Of a stretch of DNA of 64,000 bases, positions 1-48,578 are shown in pieces. The notes under the pieces are model-generated. The model had not been told where the DNA came from, made no database searches, and was given only the letters and a program-made list of their open reading frames with translations. The stretch is taken from NCBI RefSeq assembly GCF_013315695.1, contig NZ_CP054353.1. One strand, given 5' to 3'. The DNA comes from Escherichia coli. GTDB taxonomy: Bacteria; Pseudomonadota; Gammaproteobacteria; Enterobacterales; Enterobacteriaceae. Position numbers and translations under genes: made by a program. Within the stretch, counting starts at the first letter, position 1. The number at the start of each line of letters is the position of its first letter.

Positions 1-1749
1 GTCTCATATTTCATGAGAGCATCTTTCATCGCATGCAGAATATCCATATTGTCGGTCAGAAGCTGACGCGCACGATTATAGTTACGCTCAATCAGTGCTT
101 TTACTTCCTGGTCGATGATACGTGCAGTTTCATCAGACATATGTTTCGCTTTCGCTACGCTACGGCCGAGGAACACTTCACCTTCTTCTTCCGCGTACAG
201 CAGTGGACCCAATTTCTCAGAGAAGCCCCACTGAGTCACCATGTTACGTGCCAGGTTGGTCGCAACTTTAATATCGTTGGACGCACCGGTAGAAACATGT
301 TCCGGCCCGTAGATGATCTCTTCTGCCAGACGACCACCGTACAGCGTAGAAATCTGGCTTTCCAGTTTCTGACGGCTGGCGCTGATTGCGTCGCCCTCAG
401 GCAAGAAGAAAGTCACACCCAGCGCACGACCGCGTGGGATAATCGTCACTTTGTGCACCGGATCGTGTTCCGGCACCAGGCGACCGATAATCGCGTGACC
501 CGCTTCGTGGTAAGCCGTCGATTCTTTCTGCGCTTCCGTCATCACCATGGAGCGACGTTCCGCACCCATCATGATTTTGTCTTTCGCTTTCTCGAACTCA
601 ACCATCGACACAACGCGTTTGTTGCCACGAGCAGCGAACAGTGCCGCTTCGTTTACCAGGTTCGCCAGGTCAGCACCGGAGAAACCAGGAGTACCACGGG
701 CAATGATTGCCGCGTCGATATCGGGTGCCAAAGGTACGCGACGCATGTGAACTTTCAGGATCTGCTCACGACCACGAACATCTGGCAAGCCAACCACAAC
801 CTGACGGTCGAAACGGCCAGGACGCAGCAGGGCTGGGTCGAGAACGTCCGGACGGTTAGTCGCAGCGATAACGATGATACCTTCGTTACCTTCAAAACCA
901 TCCATCTCAACCAGCATCTGGTTCAGAGTCTGTTCACGTTCATCGTGACCACCGCCCAAGCCTGCGCCGCGCTGGCGGCCTACGGCGTCGATTTCATCGA
1001 TAAAGATGATGCACGGCGCCGCTTTCTTCGCCTGTTCGAACATGTCACGAACACGGGATGCACCCACACCGACGAACATTTCTACGAAGTCAGAACCGGA
1101 GATAGTAAAGAACGGAACTTTCGCTTCGCCTGCAATTGCTTTCGCCAGCAACGTTTTACCGGTACCCGGAGGACCTACCATCAGGACGCCTTTCGGGATC
1201 TTACCGCCGAGTTTCTGGAAGCGGCTCGGCTCGCGCAGATACTCAACCAGTTCAGCAACTTCTTCTTTTGCTTCGTCGCAGCCCGCAACGTCAGCAAAGG
1301 TGGTTTTGATCTGATCTTCCGTCAGCATGCGCGCTTTGCTCTTACCAAACGACATGGCACCTTTGCCACCGCCGCCCTGCATTTGACGCATGAAGAAGAT
1401 CCAGACACCAATCAGCAACAGCATCGGGAACCAGGAGATGAAGATAGAAGCCAGCAGGCTTGGTTCTTCAGGCGGTTCACCGACAACCTTGACGTTCTTG
1501 GTCAACAGGTTATCCAGTAATTTCGGATCCTGAACCGGAATGTAAGTGGTATAACGGTTACTATCTTTCTTGGTAACGTTGATTTCACGTCCGTTGATAC
1601 GCGCTTCACGAACCTGGTCGTTATTGACCTCTTGTAGGAAGGTAGAGTAATCCACCTTACGGCCATTAGACTCGCTGGGCCCAAAGCTCTGGAATACTGA
1701 CATCAGCACAACGGCAATGACCAGCCAGAGTATTAGGTTTTTCGCCATG
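1..1749 (-). CDS. ftsH: ATP-dependent zinc metalloprotease FtsH (partial, C-terminal end beyond window start)
   Basis: Minus-strand translation from ATG at 1749 gives [22 protein letters not shown]..., the FtsH N-terminus; runs off window at position 1. The 33..1520 plus-strand ORF in the track is antisense to it. Confidence 0.95.
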
Positions 1750-1847
1750 TCACTCAAGGGATTAACCTCTTATTACAACTGTGTTAAAAACAGCGTCAGG
1801 ATACTCTATATCCAGCATCTTTCAAACTTTCGTCTGAAATCTCCCGG

Positions 1848-2477
1848 TTAGGGTTTACGCCCGGTCGCTACAATATACACTTCCCGCGAACGTGCACGAG
1901 AAGAGTCCGGCTTACGAACTTTGACCTTCGTAAACAGGGAGCGAATTTCCCTTAGATACTCATCGAAACCTTCGCCCTGGAACACCTTCACAACAAAACT
2001 GCCACCTGGCGCCAATACATCACGACACATTTCTAGCGCCAGTTCCACCAGATACATGGCACGGGGGATATCCACCGCCGGTGTTCCGCTCATGTTTGGT
2101 GCCATATCGGACATGACAACCTGGACTTTGCTGTCGCCAACGCGCTCCAGCAGTGCTTTCATCACCAGTTCATCACGAAAATCGCCCTGAAGAAAGTCCA
2201 CACCAACGATAGGATCCATAGGTAAAAGATCGCAAGCGATGATGCGGCCTTTGCCGCCAATTTGGGTGACCACATATTGTGACCAACCACCCGGAGCAGC
2301 ACCAAGGTCGACAACCGTCATTCCCGGTTTAAAGAGTTTGTCACTTTGCTGTATTTCATCAAGTTTAAACCAGGCACGGGAACGTAACCCCTTTTTCTGT
2401 GCCTGTTGAACATATTTATCGCTAAAGTGTTCCTGAAGCCAGCGGCTGGAGCTGGCAGAACGCTTCTTACCTGTCAT
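1848..2477 (-). CDS. rlmE: 23S rRNA 2'-O-ribose U2552 methyltransferase RlmE (FtsJ)
   Basis: 209-aa [46 protein letters not shown]...; SAM-binding motif [13 protein letters not shown]; immediately upstream of ftsH as in the ftsJ-ftsH operon. Confidence 0.95.
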
Positions 2478-25364: not shown

Positions 25365-27692
25365 AGTGGCTTTTGCCACCCACGCTTTCAGTACTTCTAC
25401 GTCGTGACGCCACTCTTCTTTCATCTCTTCAATCCATTCACCGACGTTATCTTCCCAGGCGGGAAGGTCAGGAGACTGAATTTGCTGACCCAACTGTTGC
25501 AGATGGCGTAACCCCACTGACCCCGCCGCACCTTTAATTTTATGTCCTTCCTCAACAATGCCTTTTTTATCCTGCGCCGTCAGATTCGACTCCAGCACGC
25601 TAACATATCCCGGCATCATCTTCTCAAATACCGCTAACCCGTCGGTGATCAGCTTCGGTCCTACAAGTTCGAGATACTGTTCCAGCATGGGAATATCGAG
25701 CAATGCTTCTGATTTACTGTTCTCTTCTGTCGTCACCGTACTCTCCTCATCATCCTGGGTATCCCAGAATTTCTTGATCATCGCGGTTAGCGCCGGAACA
25801 GAAAGCGGCTTACTCAGCACATCATCCATTCCAGCATTGAGGTACTCTTGTTTGTCTTTCAGCACGTTAGCGGTTAAGGCCACCAGCGGTGGTAAATCCT
25901 CGCGCGGATAACGCTTCGTCAGTTCACGAGAGATATCCAGCCCGGTCATATCTGGCAACTGAATATCCAGCAACACTAGGTCGTATTCGCCCGGTTTAAA
26001 CATCTCCAGCGCCGCCTTGCCGGTCATGGCGACATCAACGCTGTTACCTAACTTTTCCAGCACAGAGCGCGCGACAATCACGTTCAGTTCAATGTCTTCC
26101 ACCAGCAGCACATTCAGCGCCGGTAAAGGCATATCGTCTTCATCAAACGCATCATCAACCTCTTCTGCTACCGACGGTGCGTGGATCGTCAACGTAAAGG
26201 TTGAACCTTTGCCCTGTTCGCTGGTAACCGTAATATCGCCGCCCATATTTTTCGCCAGACGACGAGAAACGGCCAGACCAATACCGGTACCGGTGGCAGG
26301 TTTACCACCATGACTGTCTTTCACCTGGTAATACATGGCGAAGATTTTATCCAGCTCATCCTGCGGAATGCCGATACCAGAGTCTTCCACTTCAAAATGC
26401 AGCATATCGCCTTCATCGTAGCGCACGCGCACGGTAACCTGGCCTTGCTGAGTGAATTTGACGGCGTTACTGATGAGGTTCCACAGGATCTGCCGTAAAC
26501 GCGTCCCGTCGGTAATGACCTGATGCGGTAATGGCAGCGTCGGCTCCAGATTAAAGCGCAATCCTTTTTGTTGCGCCTGCAAGGCGGAGAGATTTTCCAG
26601 ATCGGCAAGGAAACTGGTGAAATCAACCGGCTGATTATCAAGCTGGACCTTGCGCCGTTCCATCTTATCCATGTCGATAATATCGTTGAAGATATTCCCC
26701 AGCGTGACAGCCGATACATGGATGGTTTTGAGATATTTTTCCTGCTCGGCGGTGAGTTCAGTATCCAGCAGAATGCGGCTCAGGCCGACGATACCGTTCA
26801 GCGGTGTACGCAATTCGTGACTGATGGTGGAGATAAACGTCGTTTTGTCGCGGCTGGCGCGTTCAAGCGCATCCTGATACCGCTTACGCTCGGTAATGTC
26901 GCGACCAAAGCCCATCAAACCGTGACGTTTACCCACGCGGTCGTAGTACGGCACTTTACGAATTTCAAAGCAGGCTTTGCGTCCGTCGGGATAATCCAGC
27001 CACTGCTCATAGGTCAGTGACACATTATGACGGAACACTTTTTCATCGGTTTCAATGACTTTCGCAGCGGCTTCCGGTGAGTAAACATCAGCAGGTTTCA
27101 GGTGAACCAGTTGTTTTTCGCTTTTTCCGGTCAGCAGCTCCATCGCGCGGTTACAGCCGGAAAACTCTTTATCTTCGTTACGATAAAAAACCAGGTCGGG
27201 TGAAGCGTCAAGGAAGGAACGTAAGAATGAGGATTGCTGCTCGAGCTGAATTTGTGTCTCTTCGCGCTCTTTGATTTCAATTTTCAGTTGGCCGAAGGTT
27301 TCCTGCAGTTCTGCTTCCGCTTTTTCACGAACGGCGATTTCCTGATTTAGCTGGGCAATATTATCTTTTAACTGAACGTTGAGGCTCAAATCGCGCTCGC
27401 GCATCTCCTCCAGTTTTTGCACCAGTCGTGACAGACGTTGTCGTGACTCCTCCAGTTGCTCGACGACCACCGATAGAAAGTAGACCGCCCACGGCGTAAT
27501 CAGCAAACCAAAGAAGATAGAACGAATAACATCAATGCTTTCGACCTGGCCATGCAGCACCATGGTTACCGCCATTTGTACCACAATGGCAAGAACGACG
27601 AGGGCCAGCGCCAGCAACATTGAGAAGCGCACCAGACCTAACTTCATCATCAGGTCAACATAATACTGCGCCAGCAGACGAATTTGCTTCAT
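25356..27692 (-). CDS. arcB: Aerobic respiration control sensor kinase ArcB
   Basis: 778-aa ORF MKQIRLLAQYYVDLMMKLGLVRFSMLLALALVVLAIVVQMAV...; PAS, HisKA (ISHELRTPLNGI), receiver and HPt domains. Confidence 0.97.
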   Translation of the reverse strand: MKQIRLLAQYYVDLMMKLGLVRFSMLLALALVVLAIVVQMAVTMVLHGQVESIDVIRSIFFGLLITPWAVYFLSVVVEQLEESRQRLSRLVQKLEEMRERDLSLNVQLKDNIAQLNQEIAVREKAEAELQETFGQLKIEIKEREETQIQLEQQSSFLRSFLDASPDLVFYRNEDKEFSGCNRAMELLTGKSEKQLVHLKPADVYSPEAAAKVIETDEKVFRHNVSLTYEQWLDYPDGRKACFEIRKVPYYDRVGKRHGLMGFGRDITERKRYQDALERASRDKTTFISTISHELRTPLNGIVGLSRILLDTELTAEQEKYLKTIHVSAVTLGNIFNDIIDMDKMERRKVQLDNQPVDFTSFLADLENLSALQAQQKGLRFNLEPTLPLPHQVITDGTRLRQILWNLISNAVKFTQQGQVTVRVRYDEGDMLHFEVEDSGIGIPQDELDKIFAMYYQVKDSHGGKPATGTGIGLAVSRRLAKNMGGDITVTSEQGKGSTFTLTIHAPSVAEEVDDAFDEDDMPLPALNVLLVEDIELNVIVARSVLEKLGNSVDVAMTGKAALEMFKPGEYDLVLLDIQLPDMTGLDISRELTKRYPREDLPPLVALTANVLKDKQEYLNAGMDDVLSKPLSVPALTAMIKKFWDTQDDEESTVTTEENSKSEALLDIPMLEQYLELVGPKLITDGLAVFEKMMPGYVSVLESNLTAQDKKGIVEEGHKIKGAAGSVGLRHLQQLGQQIQSPDLPAWEDNVGEWIEEMKEEWRHDVEVLKAWVAKATKK

Positions 27693-27787
27693 TAGGGAAT
27701 TCCTTCACGACAACCTGCCCCAATAATACCCAATTCTGACAGTTACGTTATAAATTGTGTGAGAAATGCGGAATTCCCCTCAACGAC

Positions 27788-28717
27788 CTACTCCGTTGGA
27801 GGTAGCCACGGACGTCCCAGCGCCGATCCCTGTACGCCATGTTCATTCAGATAACGATCCAGCTCGACCATTCCCGTCCATCGATTTTCGCACCACAGCG
27901 GAGCAAGCAGCGTCGGGCGACGGGCGCTGGCGGAAATGCGGTGGTAGATCACTTCCGGTGGCGTATGGCGAATCATTTCTCCGGCAGTGAGCGTGTAATC
28001 CTCCAGTTCAATTCCGTTCAAACGCCCCGCTTCCCAGGCTTTCGCCATAATGCTGCCTTTCACAATATGCAGCGGATGCAGCTTTATGCCGTCCACGCCA
28101 GTTTCAACCACTCGCTCCAGCGTTTGCAAACATTCAGCCTGCCCTTCACCAGGCAGGCCGACAATTAAGTGAGAACACACCTTCAGCCCACGCTCACGCG
28201 CCAGCTGCGTCGTGCGCTGATAACAGGCAAAATCATGACCGCGATTGATGCGATGCAGCGTTTTGTCGTGGGCGGTTTGTAGCCCCAGCTCCAGCCACAC
28301 TTCGTAACCCTGGTCCTTATATTCGCAAAGCAGATCCAGCACCGCATCCGGCACGCAGTCCGGGCGGGTACCAACACACAAACCGACAATATTGGCCTGG
28401 CTCACCGCCTGCTGATACATAGAACGCAGCACCTGAACTTCCGCAAAGGTGCTGGTATACGCCTGAAAGTAGGCCAGATAGCGTTTAGCGCGGTTAACTA
28501 AATTCGCCTGGTGCGCCAGTTGCTCGGCAATGGAACGATGCTGCTGCGCTTCATCGGCAAACGAGGCCACATTACAGAATGTGCAGCCACCACGCCCGAT
28601 GGTACCGTCACGGTTAGGGCAGCTAAAACCGCCGTGCAGCGTCAGCTTATGCACCTTTTGCCCATAACGACGGGTGAGATCACCACCAAACATATTGACT
28701 AATTTCTGTAACTGCAT
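27788..28717 (-). CDS. yhcC: Radical SAM family protein YhcC
   Basis: Trimmed to MQLQKLVNMFGGDLTRRYGQKVHKLTLHGGFSCPNRDGTIGRGGCTFCN... (309 aa); Cys-rich radical-SAM-like motif. Confidence 0.9.
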   Translation of the reverse strand: MQLQKLVNMFGGDLTRRYGQKVHKLTLHGGFSCPNRDGTIGRGGCTFCNVASFADEAQQHRSIAEQLAHQANLVNRAKRYLAYFQAYTSTFAEVQVLRSMYQQAVSQANIVGLCVGTRPDCVPDAVLDLLCEYKDQGYEVWLELGLQTAHDKTLHRINRGHDFACYQRTTQLARERGLKVCSHLIVGLPGEGQAECLQTLERVVETGVDGIKLHPLHIVKGSIMAKAWEAGRLNGIELEDYTLTAGEMIRHTPPEVIYHRISASARRPTLLAPLWCENRWTGMVELDRYLNEHGVQGSALGRPWLPPTE

Positions 28718-29298
28718 AATCTGATAGACCGCGCCTTGAAAAGAGGCCAAAGCCTGCCATTTTTAGCCCAATTCGGCGATGACCTGGATCAATCGTCCCG
28801 GCCTGCTTTTATCAACTGCATAATCAATCAAAATTACCGAAATTTCATGCATAATCACATAAATCACTTTTGCTTATCTTGTGTCAGATTTTTTTATCTC
28901 CTTATGGATTTTAGGCAAAAACAGTAGCATGAAACGTCATTACCGATTAAGGCAGTATAAAATGCTGGCTTTCTCGTCAGTTCAAGGCAGGATAAGGGTT
29001 AACACGCCTTTATGACAGTCAGGAATTGGCTGTTTCTCTAACGACACCCCTTTTAGCCTTAATTAGAAAATCCATTTTAATTTCAGTCAATTAATAAAGA
29101 ATTTTGCGCTAAAGCACATTTCTGTACCAATAAGCTTGCCATTTGACCTGTATCAGCTTTCCCGATAAGTTGGAAATCCGCTGGAAGCTTTCTGGATGAG
29201 CAGCCTGCTCATCATATTTATGCAGTAATTGAGATCCCCTCTTCACCGTATTAACCGATGCGAAAAGGACAACAAGGGGGCGAATGCGAGGCGCGCGT

Positions 29299-35466: not shown

Positions 35467-36566
35467 ATGGAATCGCTCTCAGAAGGAACCACAGCAGGCT
35501 ACCAGCAAATCCACGACGGCATTATTCATCTGGTCGATAGCGCCCGGACGGAAACGGTACGTAGTGTTAACGCGTTAATGACCGCCACATACTGGGAAAT
35601 TGGCCGACGAATTGTCGAATTTGAACAAGGTGGCGAGGCCAGGGCTGCGTATGGTGCGCAGCTAATCAAGCGACTATCAAAGGATTTACGTCTAAGGTAT
35701 AAGCGTGGGTTTTCCACCAGGAATTTATGGCAGTTTAAGAATTTTTATATTTGTTTTCAACGAATTGAAATTGTGCAGACACTGTCTGCACAATTCGCCA
35801 GACACTATCTGGCGAATCTTGCCATTTAGCGCAACTGGCCAAATCCTTCCCCCTGCCCTGGTCCACTTACGTCCGTTTGCTTTCTGTTAAAAACGCTGAC
35901 GCTCGTAGCTTTTATGAGAAAGAGACACTCCGCTGTGGCTGGTCTGCTCGTCAGCTCGAACGGCAAATTGCGACCCAATTTTATGAGCGGACACTACTGT
36001 CACATGACAAATCAGCCATGCTGCAACAACACGCTCCTGCCGAGACGCATATTCTTCCGCAACGGGCGATACGCGATCCCTTTGTGCTCGAATTTCTGGA
36101 ATTGAAAGATGAATATTCAGAATCCGATTTTGAGGAGGCGCTGATCAACCACCTGATGGATTTCATGCTGGAACTTGGGGATGATTTTGCCTTTGTTAGT
36201 CGACAGCGAAGGTTACGCATTGATGACAACTGGTTTCGTGTCGATCTGCTGTTTTTCCACCGCCGTTTACGCTGCCTGCTAATCGTCGATCTAAAAGTGG
36301 GCAAATTCAGCTATAGCGATGCCGGACAGATGAATATGTATCTCAACTACGCCAAAGAGCACTGGACGCTACCGGATGAAAATCCGCCCATCGGTCTGAT
36401 TCTCTGTGCAGAGAAAGGAGTCGGAGAAGCGCATTATGCACTGGCTGGTTTGCCTAACACCGTTCTGGCGAGTGAATATAAGATGCAACTACCTGATGAA
36501 AAACGACTCGCGGATGAACTCGTTCGAACACAGGCGGTGTTAGAGGAAGGCTATAGACGCCGTTAA
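35467..36566 (+). pseudogene. yhcG: yhcG (DUF1016 / PDDEXK-nuclease-like), apparently frameshifted into two ORFs
   Basis: N-terminal ORF (MESLSEGTTAGYQQIHDGIIHLVDSARTETVRS...) stops at TAG 35827..35829; C-terminal homologous frame (...WSTYVRLLSVKNADARSFYEKETLRCGWSARQLERQ...) is open from 35769 to TAA 36564..36566 in a different phase. The phase change falls inside tandem palindromes at 35770..35817. It may be a genuine strain pseudogene or a sequencing error. Confidence 0.6.
35770..35817. repeat. Tandem pair of 25-bp palindromes inside yhcG (copy A 35770..35794, copy B 35793..35817)
   Basis: A = ATTGTGCAGACA-C-TGTCTGCACAAT (perfect); B = ATTCGCCAGACA-C-TATCTGGCGAAT (one mismatch); copies overlap by 2 nt, period 23 bp. 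Confidence 0.85.
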
Positions 36567-42101: not shown

Positions 42102-43648
42102 TCTGTAAGGTCAGTGTGATTAACATCATCAGTGACATCCTATCACAGGATTGAAAGTAGGGGGAAATGGCGGGGTTTTCTCTTTGTGCCTCATCATTAC
42201 TATAATTAACTGAATAATTAACTATTGCGAAAAATTAATGTAACGCAGATAAAAACATCCCGACTGAATTATTCATAAGACTATTAACAAGTATTATGAA
42301 TATTATGAATGTGTTCTTACAAAATAATCATAAGCGCATATTTTTTAATGAAAAATCACCTCATCTACAATTAAAAACACGACATCCGCACCATAAATAG
42401 CCTTGCAAAAAATATAACATCATTGTTTTCAATCTGCCGTTTATGGGATTGACCGTTTTCTTTTGACACGGAGTTCAACAATGTTCGGCATAATTATATC
42501 TGTCATCGTATTAATTACGATGGGCTATTTGATCCTGAAAAACTACAAACCTCAGGTGGTGCTGGCTGCCGCAGGTATCTTCCTGATGATGTGCGGTGTC
42601 TGGTTAGGGTTCGGTGGTGTGCTCGATCCCGCCAAAAGCAGCGGCTACTTGATCGTCGATATTTATAATGAAATCCTGCGCATGCTGTCCAACCGCATTG
42701 CCGGATTGGGGCTGTCGATTATGGCAGTGGGTGGTTATGCCCGCTATATGGAGCGCATAGGGGCCAGTCGCGCGATGGTGAGCTTGTTAAGCCGCCCGTT
42801 AAAACTCATTCGCTCGCCGTATATTATTCTGTCGGCAACTTACGTCATCGGCCAAATCATGGCGCAGTTTATTACCAGCGCCTCCGGTCTGGGTATGTTG
42901 CTGATGGTCACCTTATTTCCGACGCTGGTGAGTCTGGGAGTAAGTCGCCTCTCTGCGGTGGCGGTTATCGCAACCACGATGTCCATTGAGTGGGGGATTC
43001 TGGAAACGAACTCCATTTTTGCTGCCCAGGTCGCAGGAATGAAAATTGCCACTTACTTCTTCCACTACCAGCTTCCGGTCGCCTCTTGCGTCATTATCTC
43101 GGTGGCGATCTCCCACTTTTTCGTGCAACGCGCTTTCGACAAAAAAGATAAAAATATCAATCACGAACAGGCAGAGCAAAAAGCTCTCGATAATGTCCCG
43201 CCGCTCTATTACGCCATTTTACCGGTGATGCCGTTAATCCTGATGCTCGGCTCGCTGTTCCTTGCCCACGTCGGGCTGATGCAGTCAGAACTGCATCTGG
43301 TGGTGGTGATGTTACTGAGTTTGACGGTGACGATGTTTGTTGAGTTCTTCCACAAGCATAACTTGCGCGAAACAATGGACGATGTGCAGGCGTTTTTTGA
43401 CGGCATGGGTACGCAGTTTGCCAACGTGGTAACGCTGGTGGTCGCGGGTGAAATATTTGCGAAAGGCTTAACGACGATTGGCACTGTCGATGCGGTTATC
43501 AGGGGGGCGGAGCATTCTGGTCTGGGCGGTATTGGCGTGATGATTATTATGGCGCTGGTCATTGCCATTTGTGCCATTGTGATGGGCTCAGGCGGTGATG
43601 CTGCCAACTTACTGATTTAGTGTATGATGGTGTTTTTGAGGTGCTCCA

Positions 43649-43924
43649 GTGGCTTCTGTTTCTATCAGCTGTCCCTCCTGTTCAGCTACTGACGGGGTGG
43701 TGCGTAACGGCAAAAGCACCGCCGGACATCAGCGCTATCTCTGCTCTCACTGCCGTAAAACATGGCAACTGCAGTTCACTTACACCGCTTCTCAACCCGG
43801 TACGCACCAGAAAATCATTGATATGGCCATGAATGGCGTTGGATGCCGGGCAACAGCCCGCATTATGGGCGTTGGCCTCAACACGATTTTACGTCACTTA
43901 AAAAACTCAGGCCGCAGTCGGTAA
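43649..43924 (+). CDS. insA: IS1 InsA
   Basis: 91-aa [94 protein letters not shown]. Confidence 0.96.
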
Positions 43925-44346
43925 CCTCGCGCATACAGCCGGGCAGTGACGTCATCGTCTGCGCGGAAATGGACGAACAGTGGGGCTATGTCGGGGCTAA
44001 ATCGCGCCAGCGCTGGCTGTTTTACGCGTATGACAGGCTCCGGAAGACGGTTGTTGCGCACGTATTCGGTGAACGCACTATGGCGACGCTGGGGCGTCTT
44101 ATGAGCCTGCTGTCACCCTTTGACGTGGTGATATGGATGACGGATGGCTGGCCGCTGTATGAATCCCGCCTGAAGGGAAAGCTGCACGTAATCAGCAAGC
44201 GATATACGCAGCGAATTGAGCGGCATAACCTGAATCTGAGGCAGCACCTGGCACGGCTGGGACGGAAGTCGCTGTCGTTCTCAAAATCGGTGGAGCTGCA
44301 TGACAAAGTCATCGGGCATTATCTGAACATAAAACACTATCAATAA
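43843..44346 (+). CDS. insB: IS1 InsB (transposase made as InsAB' by -1 frameshift)
   Basis: 167-aa [67 protein letters not shown]...; overlaps insA in the -1 frame. Confidence 0.93.
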
Positions 44347-44637
44347 GTTGGAGTCATTACCCGCTCAGGCAATGCGCCGTTTATGTCATTTGCCAGTCTT
44401 ATTCCGAATATCGCAGCCGGACTACATGTACCAGCGGTTGTAATGATTATGCCGATGCATTTTGCCACGACGCTAGCGCGCGCTGTTTCGCCGATTACTG
44501 CGGTGGTGGTCGTTACGTCAGGAATTGCAGGCGTTTCGCCTTTTGCGGTAGTGAAGCGGACAGCGATCCCCATGGCAGTCGGTTTCGTGGTGAATATGAT
44601 TGCCACTATCACGCTATTTTATTAAGCGATTAAAAAG

Positions 44638-44664
44638 ACAAAACAGGCCGCCAGGGCCTGTTTT
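44638..44664. terminator. Bidirectional intrinsic terminator between convergent dcuD and sspB
   Basis: AAAA-CAGGCC-gccag-GGCCTG-TTTT. Confidence 0.7.
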
Positions 44665-44668
44665 AGTA

Positions 44669-45166
44669 TTACTTCACAACGCGTAATGCTGGTCGACCAC
44701 CGCGTGGTGGCTGCGGTGGTTCATCGTCAGGATGAGTGTCATCATCGTGATCTGGCTTGTCGCCATCAATAACCGACATAACGGTTTCGTTGTCTGCCGA
44801 TGCCTCTTCATCATTCATGATGCTGGCATCTTCATCGTAGGCAGCTTCAGGTTCAAACATCGTGCCTGCGCCATTTTCACGGGCGTAGATAGCCAGCACG
44901 GCAGCCAGCGGCACAGAAACCTGACGCGGAATGCCACCAAAGCGCGCGTTAAAGCGCACCTCATCATTCGCCAGTTCCAGATTGCCGACAGCTCGCGGCG
45001 CAATGTTGAGTACGATTTGCCCGTCACGCGCATATTCCATAGGAACCTGCACGCCAGGGAGCGTCACATCCACCACCAAGTGCGGCGTGAGCTGGTTATC
45101 CAGCAACCACTCATAGAATGCACGCAGCAGATAGGGACGACGTGGTGTTAGCTGTGACAAATCCAT
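44669..45166 (-). CDS. sspB: ClpXP specificity-enhancing adaptor SspB
   Basis: 165-aa ORF MDLSQLTPRRPYLLRAFYEWLLDNQLTPHLVVDVTLPGVQVPMEYARDGQIVLNIAP...; C-terminal ...GGRPALRVVK. Confidence 0.95.
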   Translation of the reverse strand: MDLSQLTPRRPYLLRAFYEWLLDNQLTPHLVVDVTLPGVQVPMEYARDGQIVLNIAPRAVGNLELANDEVRFNARFGGIPRQVSVPLAAVLAIYARENGAGTMFEPEAAYDEDASIMNDEEASADNETVMSVIDGDKPDHDDDTHPDDEPPQPPRGGRPALRVVK

Positions 45167-48386: not shown

Positions 48387-48578
48387 GATCTTATTGTTAT
48401 TCCTTGAATAATCGGTGCGCCGTTGTTCACGGTTGACGAAAAAAGGCCGTTCTACACTACGCGATATGCAGTCGGGATTCCACTTCTGTGGAATTAACGG
48501 TTATAGTGGCATAATCAGCCGCAGGCATGGAGCCTGAAGCCAACACCCTACGGAAACAAAAGACAACGGGAGATGTTC

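Follow-up and report, generated by a model that had tools for sequence, protein, structure and literature searches.

An IS1A-type insertion sequence interrupts dcuD in an Escherichia coli clone and is flanked by an imperfect target duplication

The closest described relative of the mobile element reported here is IS1A of Escherichia coli K-12 MG1655 (NC_000913.3 19796..20563). In elements of this kind, the InsAB' transposase is produced by a -1 frameshift (PMC12903888). The length of the target duplication left by IS1 is 9 bp in about 78% of events and 8 bp in about 22% (PMC10359306; also PMC12903888), and AT-rich targets are usually favoured, although GC-rich exceptions exist (PMC10359306). 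The gene which is interrupted, dcuD (yhcL), is found intact in strains MS 21-1, AF10 and AF14, where it encodes the DcuC-family C4-dicarboxylate carrier WP_000466987.1. It was reported to be silent in most of the conditions that were examined, and its role was described as unknown, while one study reported altered ATPase activity and higher H2 and ethanol yields for dcuD mutants in glycerol fermentation (PMC6414658).

We analysed a stretch of 64,000 nucleotides of E. coli DNA, referred to here as the window, whose numbering is used throughout, and identified a complete IS1 of the IS1A type within dcuD (Table 1). It shares with IS1A of K-12 MG1655 the length of 768 bp, the terminal repeats, the insA / A6C / insB' layout and 767 of 768 bases, the single difference being at IS position 444, with G here and T in K-12. 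It also differs from the K-12 copy in its chromosomal location and in its target duplication, which agrees at 8 of 9 positions here and is thus not perfect. The first bases of the element are GGTGATGCTGCCAACTTACTGAT and its last bases are the reverse complement of GGTAATGACTCCAACTTATTGAT. Both terminal inverted repeats matched the consensus exactly, with shuffled sequence, which served to set the chance level, giving no match at all, and the two arms match each other at 18 of 23 positions. The insB' frame overlaps insA in the -1 phase relative to it, and the slippery site lies within TTAAAAAAC at 43898..43906, which is IS position 305. The matches of the IS1 proteins to their Pfam families (PF03811, PF12759 and PF03400) were all far above the cut-offs.

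Table 1. Features of the interrupted dcuD locus, in window coordinates
Feature	Position	Strand	Evidence or remark
dcuD (yhcL) 5' fragment, codons 1-371	42481..43593	+	ORF; Pfam DcuC 1-379 of 461, E=2e-109
Left target copy GGCTCAGGC, ancestral	43585..43593	.	Read directly; codons 369-371
Complete IS1 (IS1A type), 768 bp	43594..44361	+	Same orientation as dcuD
IRL, left terminal inverted repeat	43594..43616	+	Exact consensus match, 0 expected by chance
Promoter-like site	43601..43628		Promoter-like match; overlaps IRL
insA, 91 aa	43649..43924	+	ORF; Pfam Zn_ribbon_InsA E=1.3e-21, HTH_Tnp_IS1 E=4.7e-31
insB' reading frame, DDE catalytic domain, 167 aa	43843..44346	+	ORF; Pfam DDE_Tnp_IS1 1-131 of 131, E=2.3e-78
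A6C slippery site (-1 frameshift to InsAB' transposase)	43900..43906	+	Within TTAAAAAAC
IRR, right terminal inverted repeat	44339..44361	-	Exact consensus match, 0 expected by chance
Right target copy CGCTCAGGC, C at 44362 derived (ancestral G)	44362..44370	.	Read directly
dcuD 3' fragment, codons 372-455 and stop	44371..44625	+	Pfam DcuC 378-460 of 461, E=2.5e-25
Bidirectional terminator-like hairpin, intact, between dcuD and sspB	44639..44665	both	Terminator-like matches

The length of about 768 bp, the imperfect inverted repeats of about 23 bp, the order of insA, A6C and insB' and the near-identity to the reference together place the element in the IS1 family, and the same sequence in strain AF3 bears the RefSeq (PGAP) name 'IS1-like element IS1A family transposase, programmed frameshift'. 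A complete 768-bp IS1 with insA, insB and the A6C motif inside dcuD had already been recognised in an earlier, sequence-only reading of this DNA, and it was confirmed by both repeats, by the Pfam domains and by the comparison with K-12 IS1A. Exact copies of the element (100% identity) were found in many E. coli genomes, E. coli B derivatives included. Judged by its sequence, the copy is complete and looks functional, with all the sequence requirements for transposition intact, and it may still be mobile.

With codons numbered from the ATG at 42481, base 43593 completes codon 371 of the 455, and the insertion splits dcuD exactly at this point. The sequence-only reading had located the break near codon 378, which is about 7 codons too high; apparently an upstream in-frame TTG was counted as the start, from which the break falls at codon ~377 to 378. 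When IS1 and one copy of the repeat are removed, the rejoined ORF encodes the intact 455-aa DcuD of MS 21-1 (WP_000466987.1) without a single difference; thus both halves of the gene are otherwise undamaged, as had been proposed. The two pieces together span positions 1-379 and 378-460 of the 461 in the DcuC profile (PF03606). The orthologous position of dcuD was confirmed by synteny: the gene order is nanR-dcuD-sspB-sspA, with sspB convergent to dcuD, and it is the same in MS 21-1, AF10 and AF14, whose DcuD is also the same protein as the rejoined one.

Reading through from the 5' fragment into IS1 adds eight codons (GDAANLLI) before the stop at 43618..43620, which gives a product of 379 aa. 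A simple hydropathy scan detected three hydrophobic segments after residue 371 (roughly 379-403, 406-433 and 435-455), in agreement with the earlier statement that the last three or so helices of DcuD are lost. In contrast to the intact dcuD of MS 21-1, AF10 and AF14, the last 84 residues are here cut off from the promoter and the start codon. The 3' fragment contains an 80-aa ORF starting from the ATG at 44383, and many assemblies annotate this ORF as a gene. An intact ORF for the full-length DcuD carrier is absent here, and RefSeq marks both pieces as pseudogene fragments; in case of AF3 and MSB1_4I, the 5' piece is given as a RefSeq pseudogene 'missing C-terminus'.

A reconstruction of the empty site, in which 43294..43593 is followed directly by 44371..44670 (600 bp, with the left copy of the target), was identical to four uninterrupted genomes over 600/600 bases. 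Of the 5,426 complete E. coli genomes, 4,382 had an uninterrupted dcuD site. The sequence of the empty site is ...ATGGGCTCAGGCAATG, and the ancestral sequence in its longer form is ...GTGATGGGCTCAGGCAATGCG...; this makes the left flank GGCTCAGGC ancestral and the C at 44362, within the right flank CGCTCAGGC, a derived base, and the alignment to uninterrupted relatives restarts at 44363. The 9-bp flanks agree at 8 of 9 positions, which falls short of the textbook signature, and the calculated probability of at least 8 of 9 flank matches arising by chance is about 1e-4. The 8-mers that abut the element differ, with GCTCAGGC at the left and CGCTCAGG at the right. That at least 8 bp were duplicated is proven by the empty site. 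As read from the sequence, the flanks would represent either a 9-bp duplication with one G-to-C change at the right IS end, or an 8-bp duplication accompanied by an orphan C. Of the 8-9 bp duplication suggested previously, the target-site duplication itself stood, whereas a clean abutting duplication of 8 bp is not present, the 8-bp option needing the orphan C. Seven of the nine target bases are G or C, which is at odds with the usual preference of IS1 for AT-rich targets (PMC10359306).

For a baseline, 10 other IS1 places were sampled from assorted public assemblies, and both ends of the element were found in 9 of them. In none of these nine copies could a target duplication of 8 or 9 bp be recognised, the flanks differing at 5 to 9 of 9 positions, and the sample thus provides no baseline for imperfect duplications. 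Several of the sampled copies were 766 or 737 bp long.

The left junction (sequence GTGATGGGCTCAGGCGGTGATGCTGCC) was detected in only 2 of the 5,426 complete E. coli genomes, AF3, from a blood culture in the UK, and MSB1_4I, from a rectal swab in Australia. On the other hand, the exact 379-aa truncated DcuD was found on 636 public contigs, including those of E. coli KTE69 and KTE143 (Broad), the NCTC-type UGAA01000001.1 and human gut metagenomes, and the 80-aa C-terminal ORF was found on 583. All carriers of the insertion whose junctions were read had identical junctions, the C included. Over a compared length of 5.1 kb, UGAA01000001.1 and the window were identical, and AF3 was separated from the window by 10 substitutions and 2 indels of one base each in 64 kb. 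Among the non-carriers, 12 mismatches to the window were counted for MS 21-1 in about 39 kb, and 19 for AF10 and AF14 in about 40 kb, so that carriers and non-carriers diverge by 3 to 5 per 10,000 bases.

As the distance per base between carriers (AF3 and the window) is roughly half of that between carriers and non-carriers, the insertion is not private or very recent; it is young on the species scale, yet fixed as a marker in a clone that has been sampled widely. The 'likely recent' insertion of the sequence-only reading is accordingly correct for the species scale, and does not hold in the sense of a private or very recent event, given its fixation in the clone, the number of contigs and the isolates from the UK and Australia. 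The closest named strains were the phylogroup F strains IAI39, CE10 and SMS-3-5, with 99.7 to 99.8% identity across the 600 bp of the site. Each of the two complete carrier chromosomes contained at least 40 pieces matching IS1, the median per genome being 10 to 11 places, which supports an IS1-rich lineage and in this sense the IS1-active lineage that had been proposed. A comparison with insertions of Shigella, E. coli B and K-12 had also been suggested, and an origin from any of these was rejected, as the B-strain records matched only the IS1 half of the junction query. The allele is already known in the databases, since RefSeq annotates the insertion and the protein fragments are publicly deposited; a literature search for dcuD together with IS1 and the names of the carrier strains found no publication on this dcuD::IS1 allele.

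Other differences were observed in the neighbourhood. Compared with strain GF131, the gene yhcG (PDDEXK nuclease, 35467..36566) lacks 13 bp after 35788, and it is annotated as 'frameshifted' in AF3, MS 21-1, AF10 and AF14. As this pseudogene is common to the non-carriers MS 21-1, AF10 and AF14, it is probably older than the IS1 insertion. At 48438, in the zapE-zapG intergenic region, the window and AF3 differ in a homopolymer (A7 vs A8), by either real slippage or a sequencing error. In the close non-carrier MS 21-1, an inserted IS4 lies between degS and mdh (27637..28983 of the MS 21-1 locus), at the equivalent of window ~51690, where the window has no IS4.

Loss of dcuD is not confined to this clone. 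The gene is wholly absent from 1,040 of the 5,426 complete E. coli genomes (19%), in which the gap between nanR and sspB is about 107 bp, and this count, obtained from the nanR-sspB spacing, agrees with the 1,041 genomes without a dcuD match in the empty-site search. E2348/69 is one example, with the interval corresponding to 42102..44668 of the window. Frameshifted dcuD alleles were detected in other E. coli lineages (e.g. GCA_047158925.1), with a shared 102-aa C-terminal fragment on at least 1,000 contigs. In Shigella dysenteriae CP061527.1, an IS1-type element in the opposite orientation (1648..2414 of the compared locus) replaces the dcuD promoter and about the first 324 codons, a lesion which corresponds to 42414..43453 of the window. 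All these natural lesions inactivate the same gene as the present insertion, and the one in S. dysenteriae likewise involves an IS1-type element; however, they are independent events at other positions, and that of S. dysenteriae is a replacement rather than a simple insertion.

The similarity of the flanks might not be a transposition footprint at all, if IS1 had been brought to dcuD by homologous recombination between IS1 copies or had been placed there by an assembly artefact. The nine sampled natural copies, none with a duplication, would fit frequent IS1-IS1 recombination, and short-read assemblies break at the IS1 repeat. Nevertheless, we consider this highly improbable, since recombination between IS copies would join unrelated flanks, whereas the halves of dcuD adjoin each other exactly in the intact gene, no base is missing and 8 of 9 bases are repeated. 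A second IS1 copy, sought in the 64-kb window as a test of such a recombination origin, was not found there, each terminal repeat occurring once. As for an artefact, the same junctions recur in independent complete assemblies, in Broad scaffolds and in metagenome contigs; mis-assembly, which the sequence-only reading had left as the sole escape from its claim, is thus ruled out. With transposition into dcuD as the preferred explanation, the origin of the mismatched base remains to be considered. The C was present at the equivalent of 44362 in the window and in 8 of 8 distinct public records in which the right junction was read (AF3, MSB1_4I, one NCTC-type assembly, four Broad KTE scaffolds and one gut-metagenome contig). 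The simplest model, which involves no unusual transposition chemistry, is a perfect 9-bp duplication of GGCTCAGGC at insertion, the majority class for IS1 (PMC10359306), followed by an unrelated G-to-C mutation that became fixed before the carriers diverged; the clone has indeed gained some SNPs, as in the 10 per 64 kb between two carriers. This is possible, but it appears the less probable course of events. The divergence between carriers and non-carriers bounds the branch available for a later mutation, and at this low level at most about 0.006 to 0.009 later substitutions are expected by calculation over all 18 bases of the duplication; for the two that abut the IS, the figure is about 0.001 or less. 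The change sits exactly on an IS-abutting base and is of the rare transversion type. Moreover, every carrier read has the C, and a scan of JGI metagenomes for the right junction with any base allowed at the variable position, intended to reveal a G form, gave 0 matches. The low number of expected later substitutions favours an origin at the time of insertion, and the G-to-C change at the right IS1 end is thus, by the sequence comparison, somewhat more probably a footprint of the transposition event itself. It may have been an error in gap repair at the last base, or a one-base carry-over from the donor flank combined with an 8-bp stagger.

With regard to the consequence for the cell, the inactivation of dcuD could be adaptive, with recurrent selected loss of the gene and the IS1 allele helping the clone to spread. 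The repeated absence or breakage of dcuD described above (absence from about a fifth of the complete genomes, the frameshift allele and the S. dysenteriae deletion), the presence of the IS1 allele on about 600 contigs and the reported phenotype of dcuD mutants on glycerol, with raised yields of H2 and ethanol and a changed ATPase activity (PMC6414658), could all be taken in this direction. We regard it as unlikely, since recurrent loss is equally expected for an unexpressed and dispensable gene (PMC6414658) and the close non-carriers MS 21-1, AF10 and AF14 continue to occupy the same niches. Repeated loss is in keeping with a dispensable gene, and thus the most likely effect of the insertion is none; that dcuD is reportedly silent under most tested conditions and is often missing in E. 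coli also makes a neutral loss the most probable one. The loss of dcuD by this insertion probably matters little.

Taken together, we are highly confident in the following overall account, in which the ancestor of a single E. coli clone acquired an IS1A-type element in dcuD by transposition, which left an imperfect duplication and a gene loss that was probably neutral and was inherited vertically. The target would have been the 9-bp GGCTCAGGC at codons 369-371, duplicated on both sides of the element through staggered cuts by the IS1 transposase and gap filling by the host. The G to C change at the base of the right copy touching the IS end probably arose during insertion. DcuD would thereby have been truncated after residue 371, gaining 8 IS-encoded residues and losing about three C-terminal hydrophobic segments. 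The event was most probably neutral, and the insertion would since have been passed on vertically as a marker of the clone.

The finding has little biological weight, as it concerns a very common mobile element in a gene that is rarely expressed in E. coli and often missing from it. In practice it is of use as a stable junction marker of one clone, recognisable by PCR across 43500..44450 or by a search with the junction sequences, and this clone occurs in samples from the bloodstream, from rectal swabs and from gut metagenomes in several collections. The imperfect duplication is also a small caution for pipelines which recognise IS1 insertions by perfect 8- or 9-bp repeats only. Surveys restricted to perfect repeats of 8 or 9 bp would miss a class of IS1 events, should near-perfect duplications of this kind be common.
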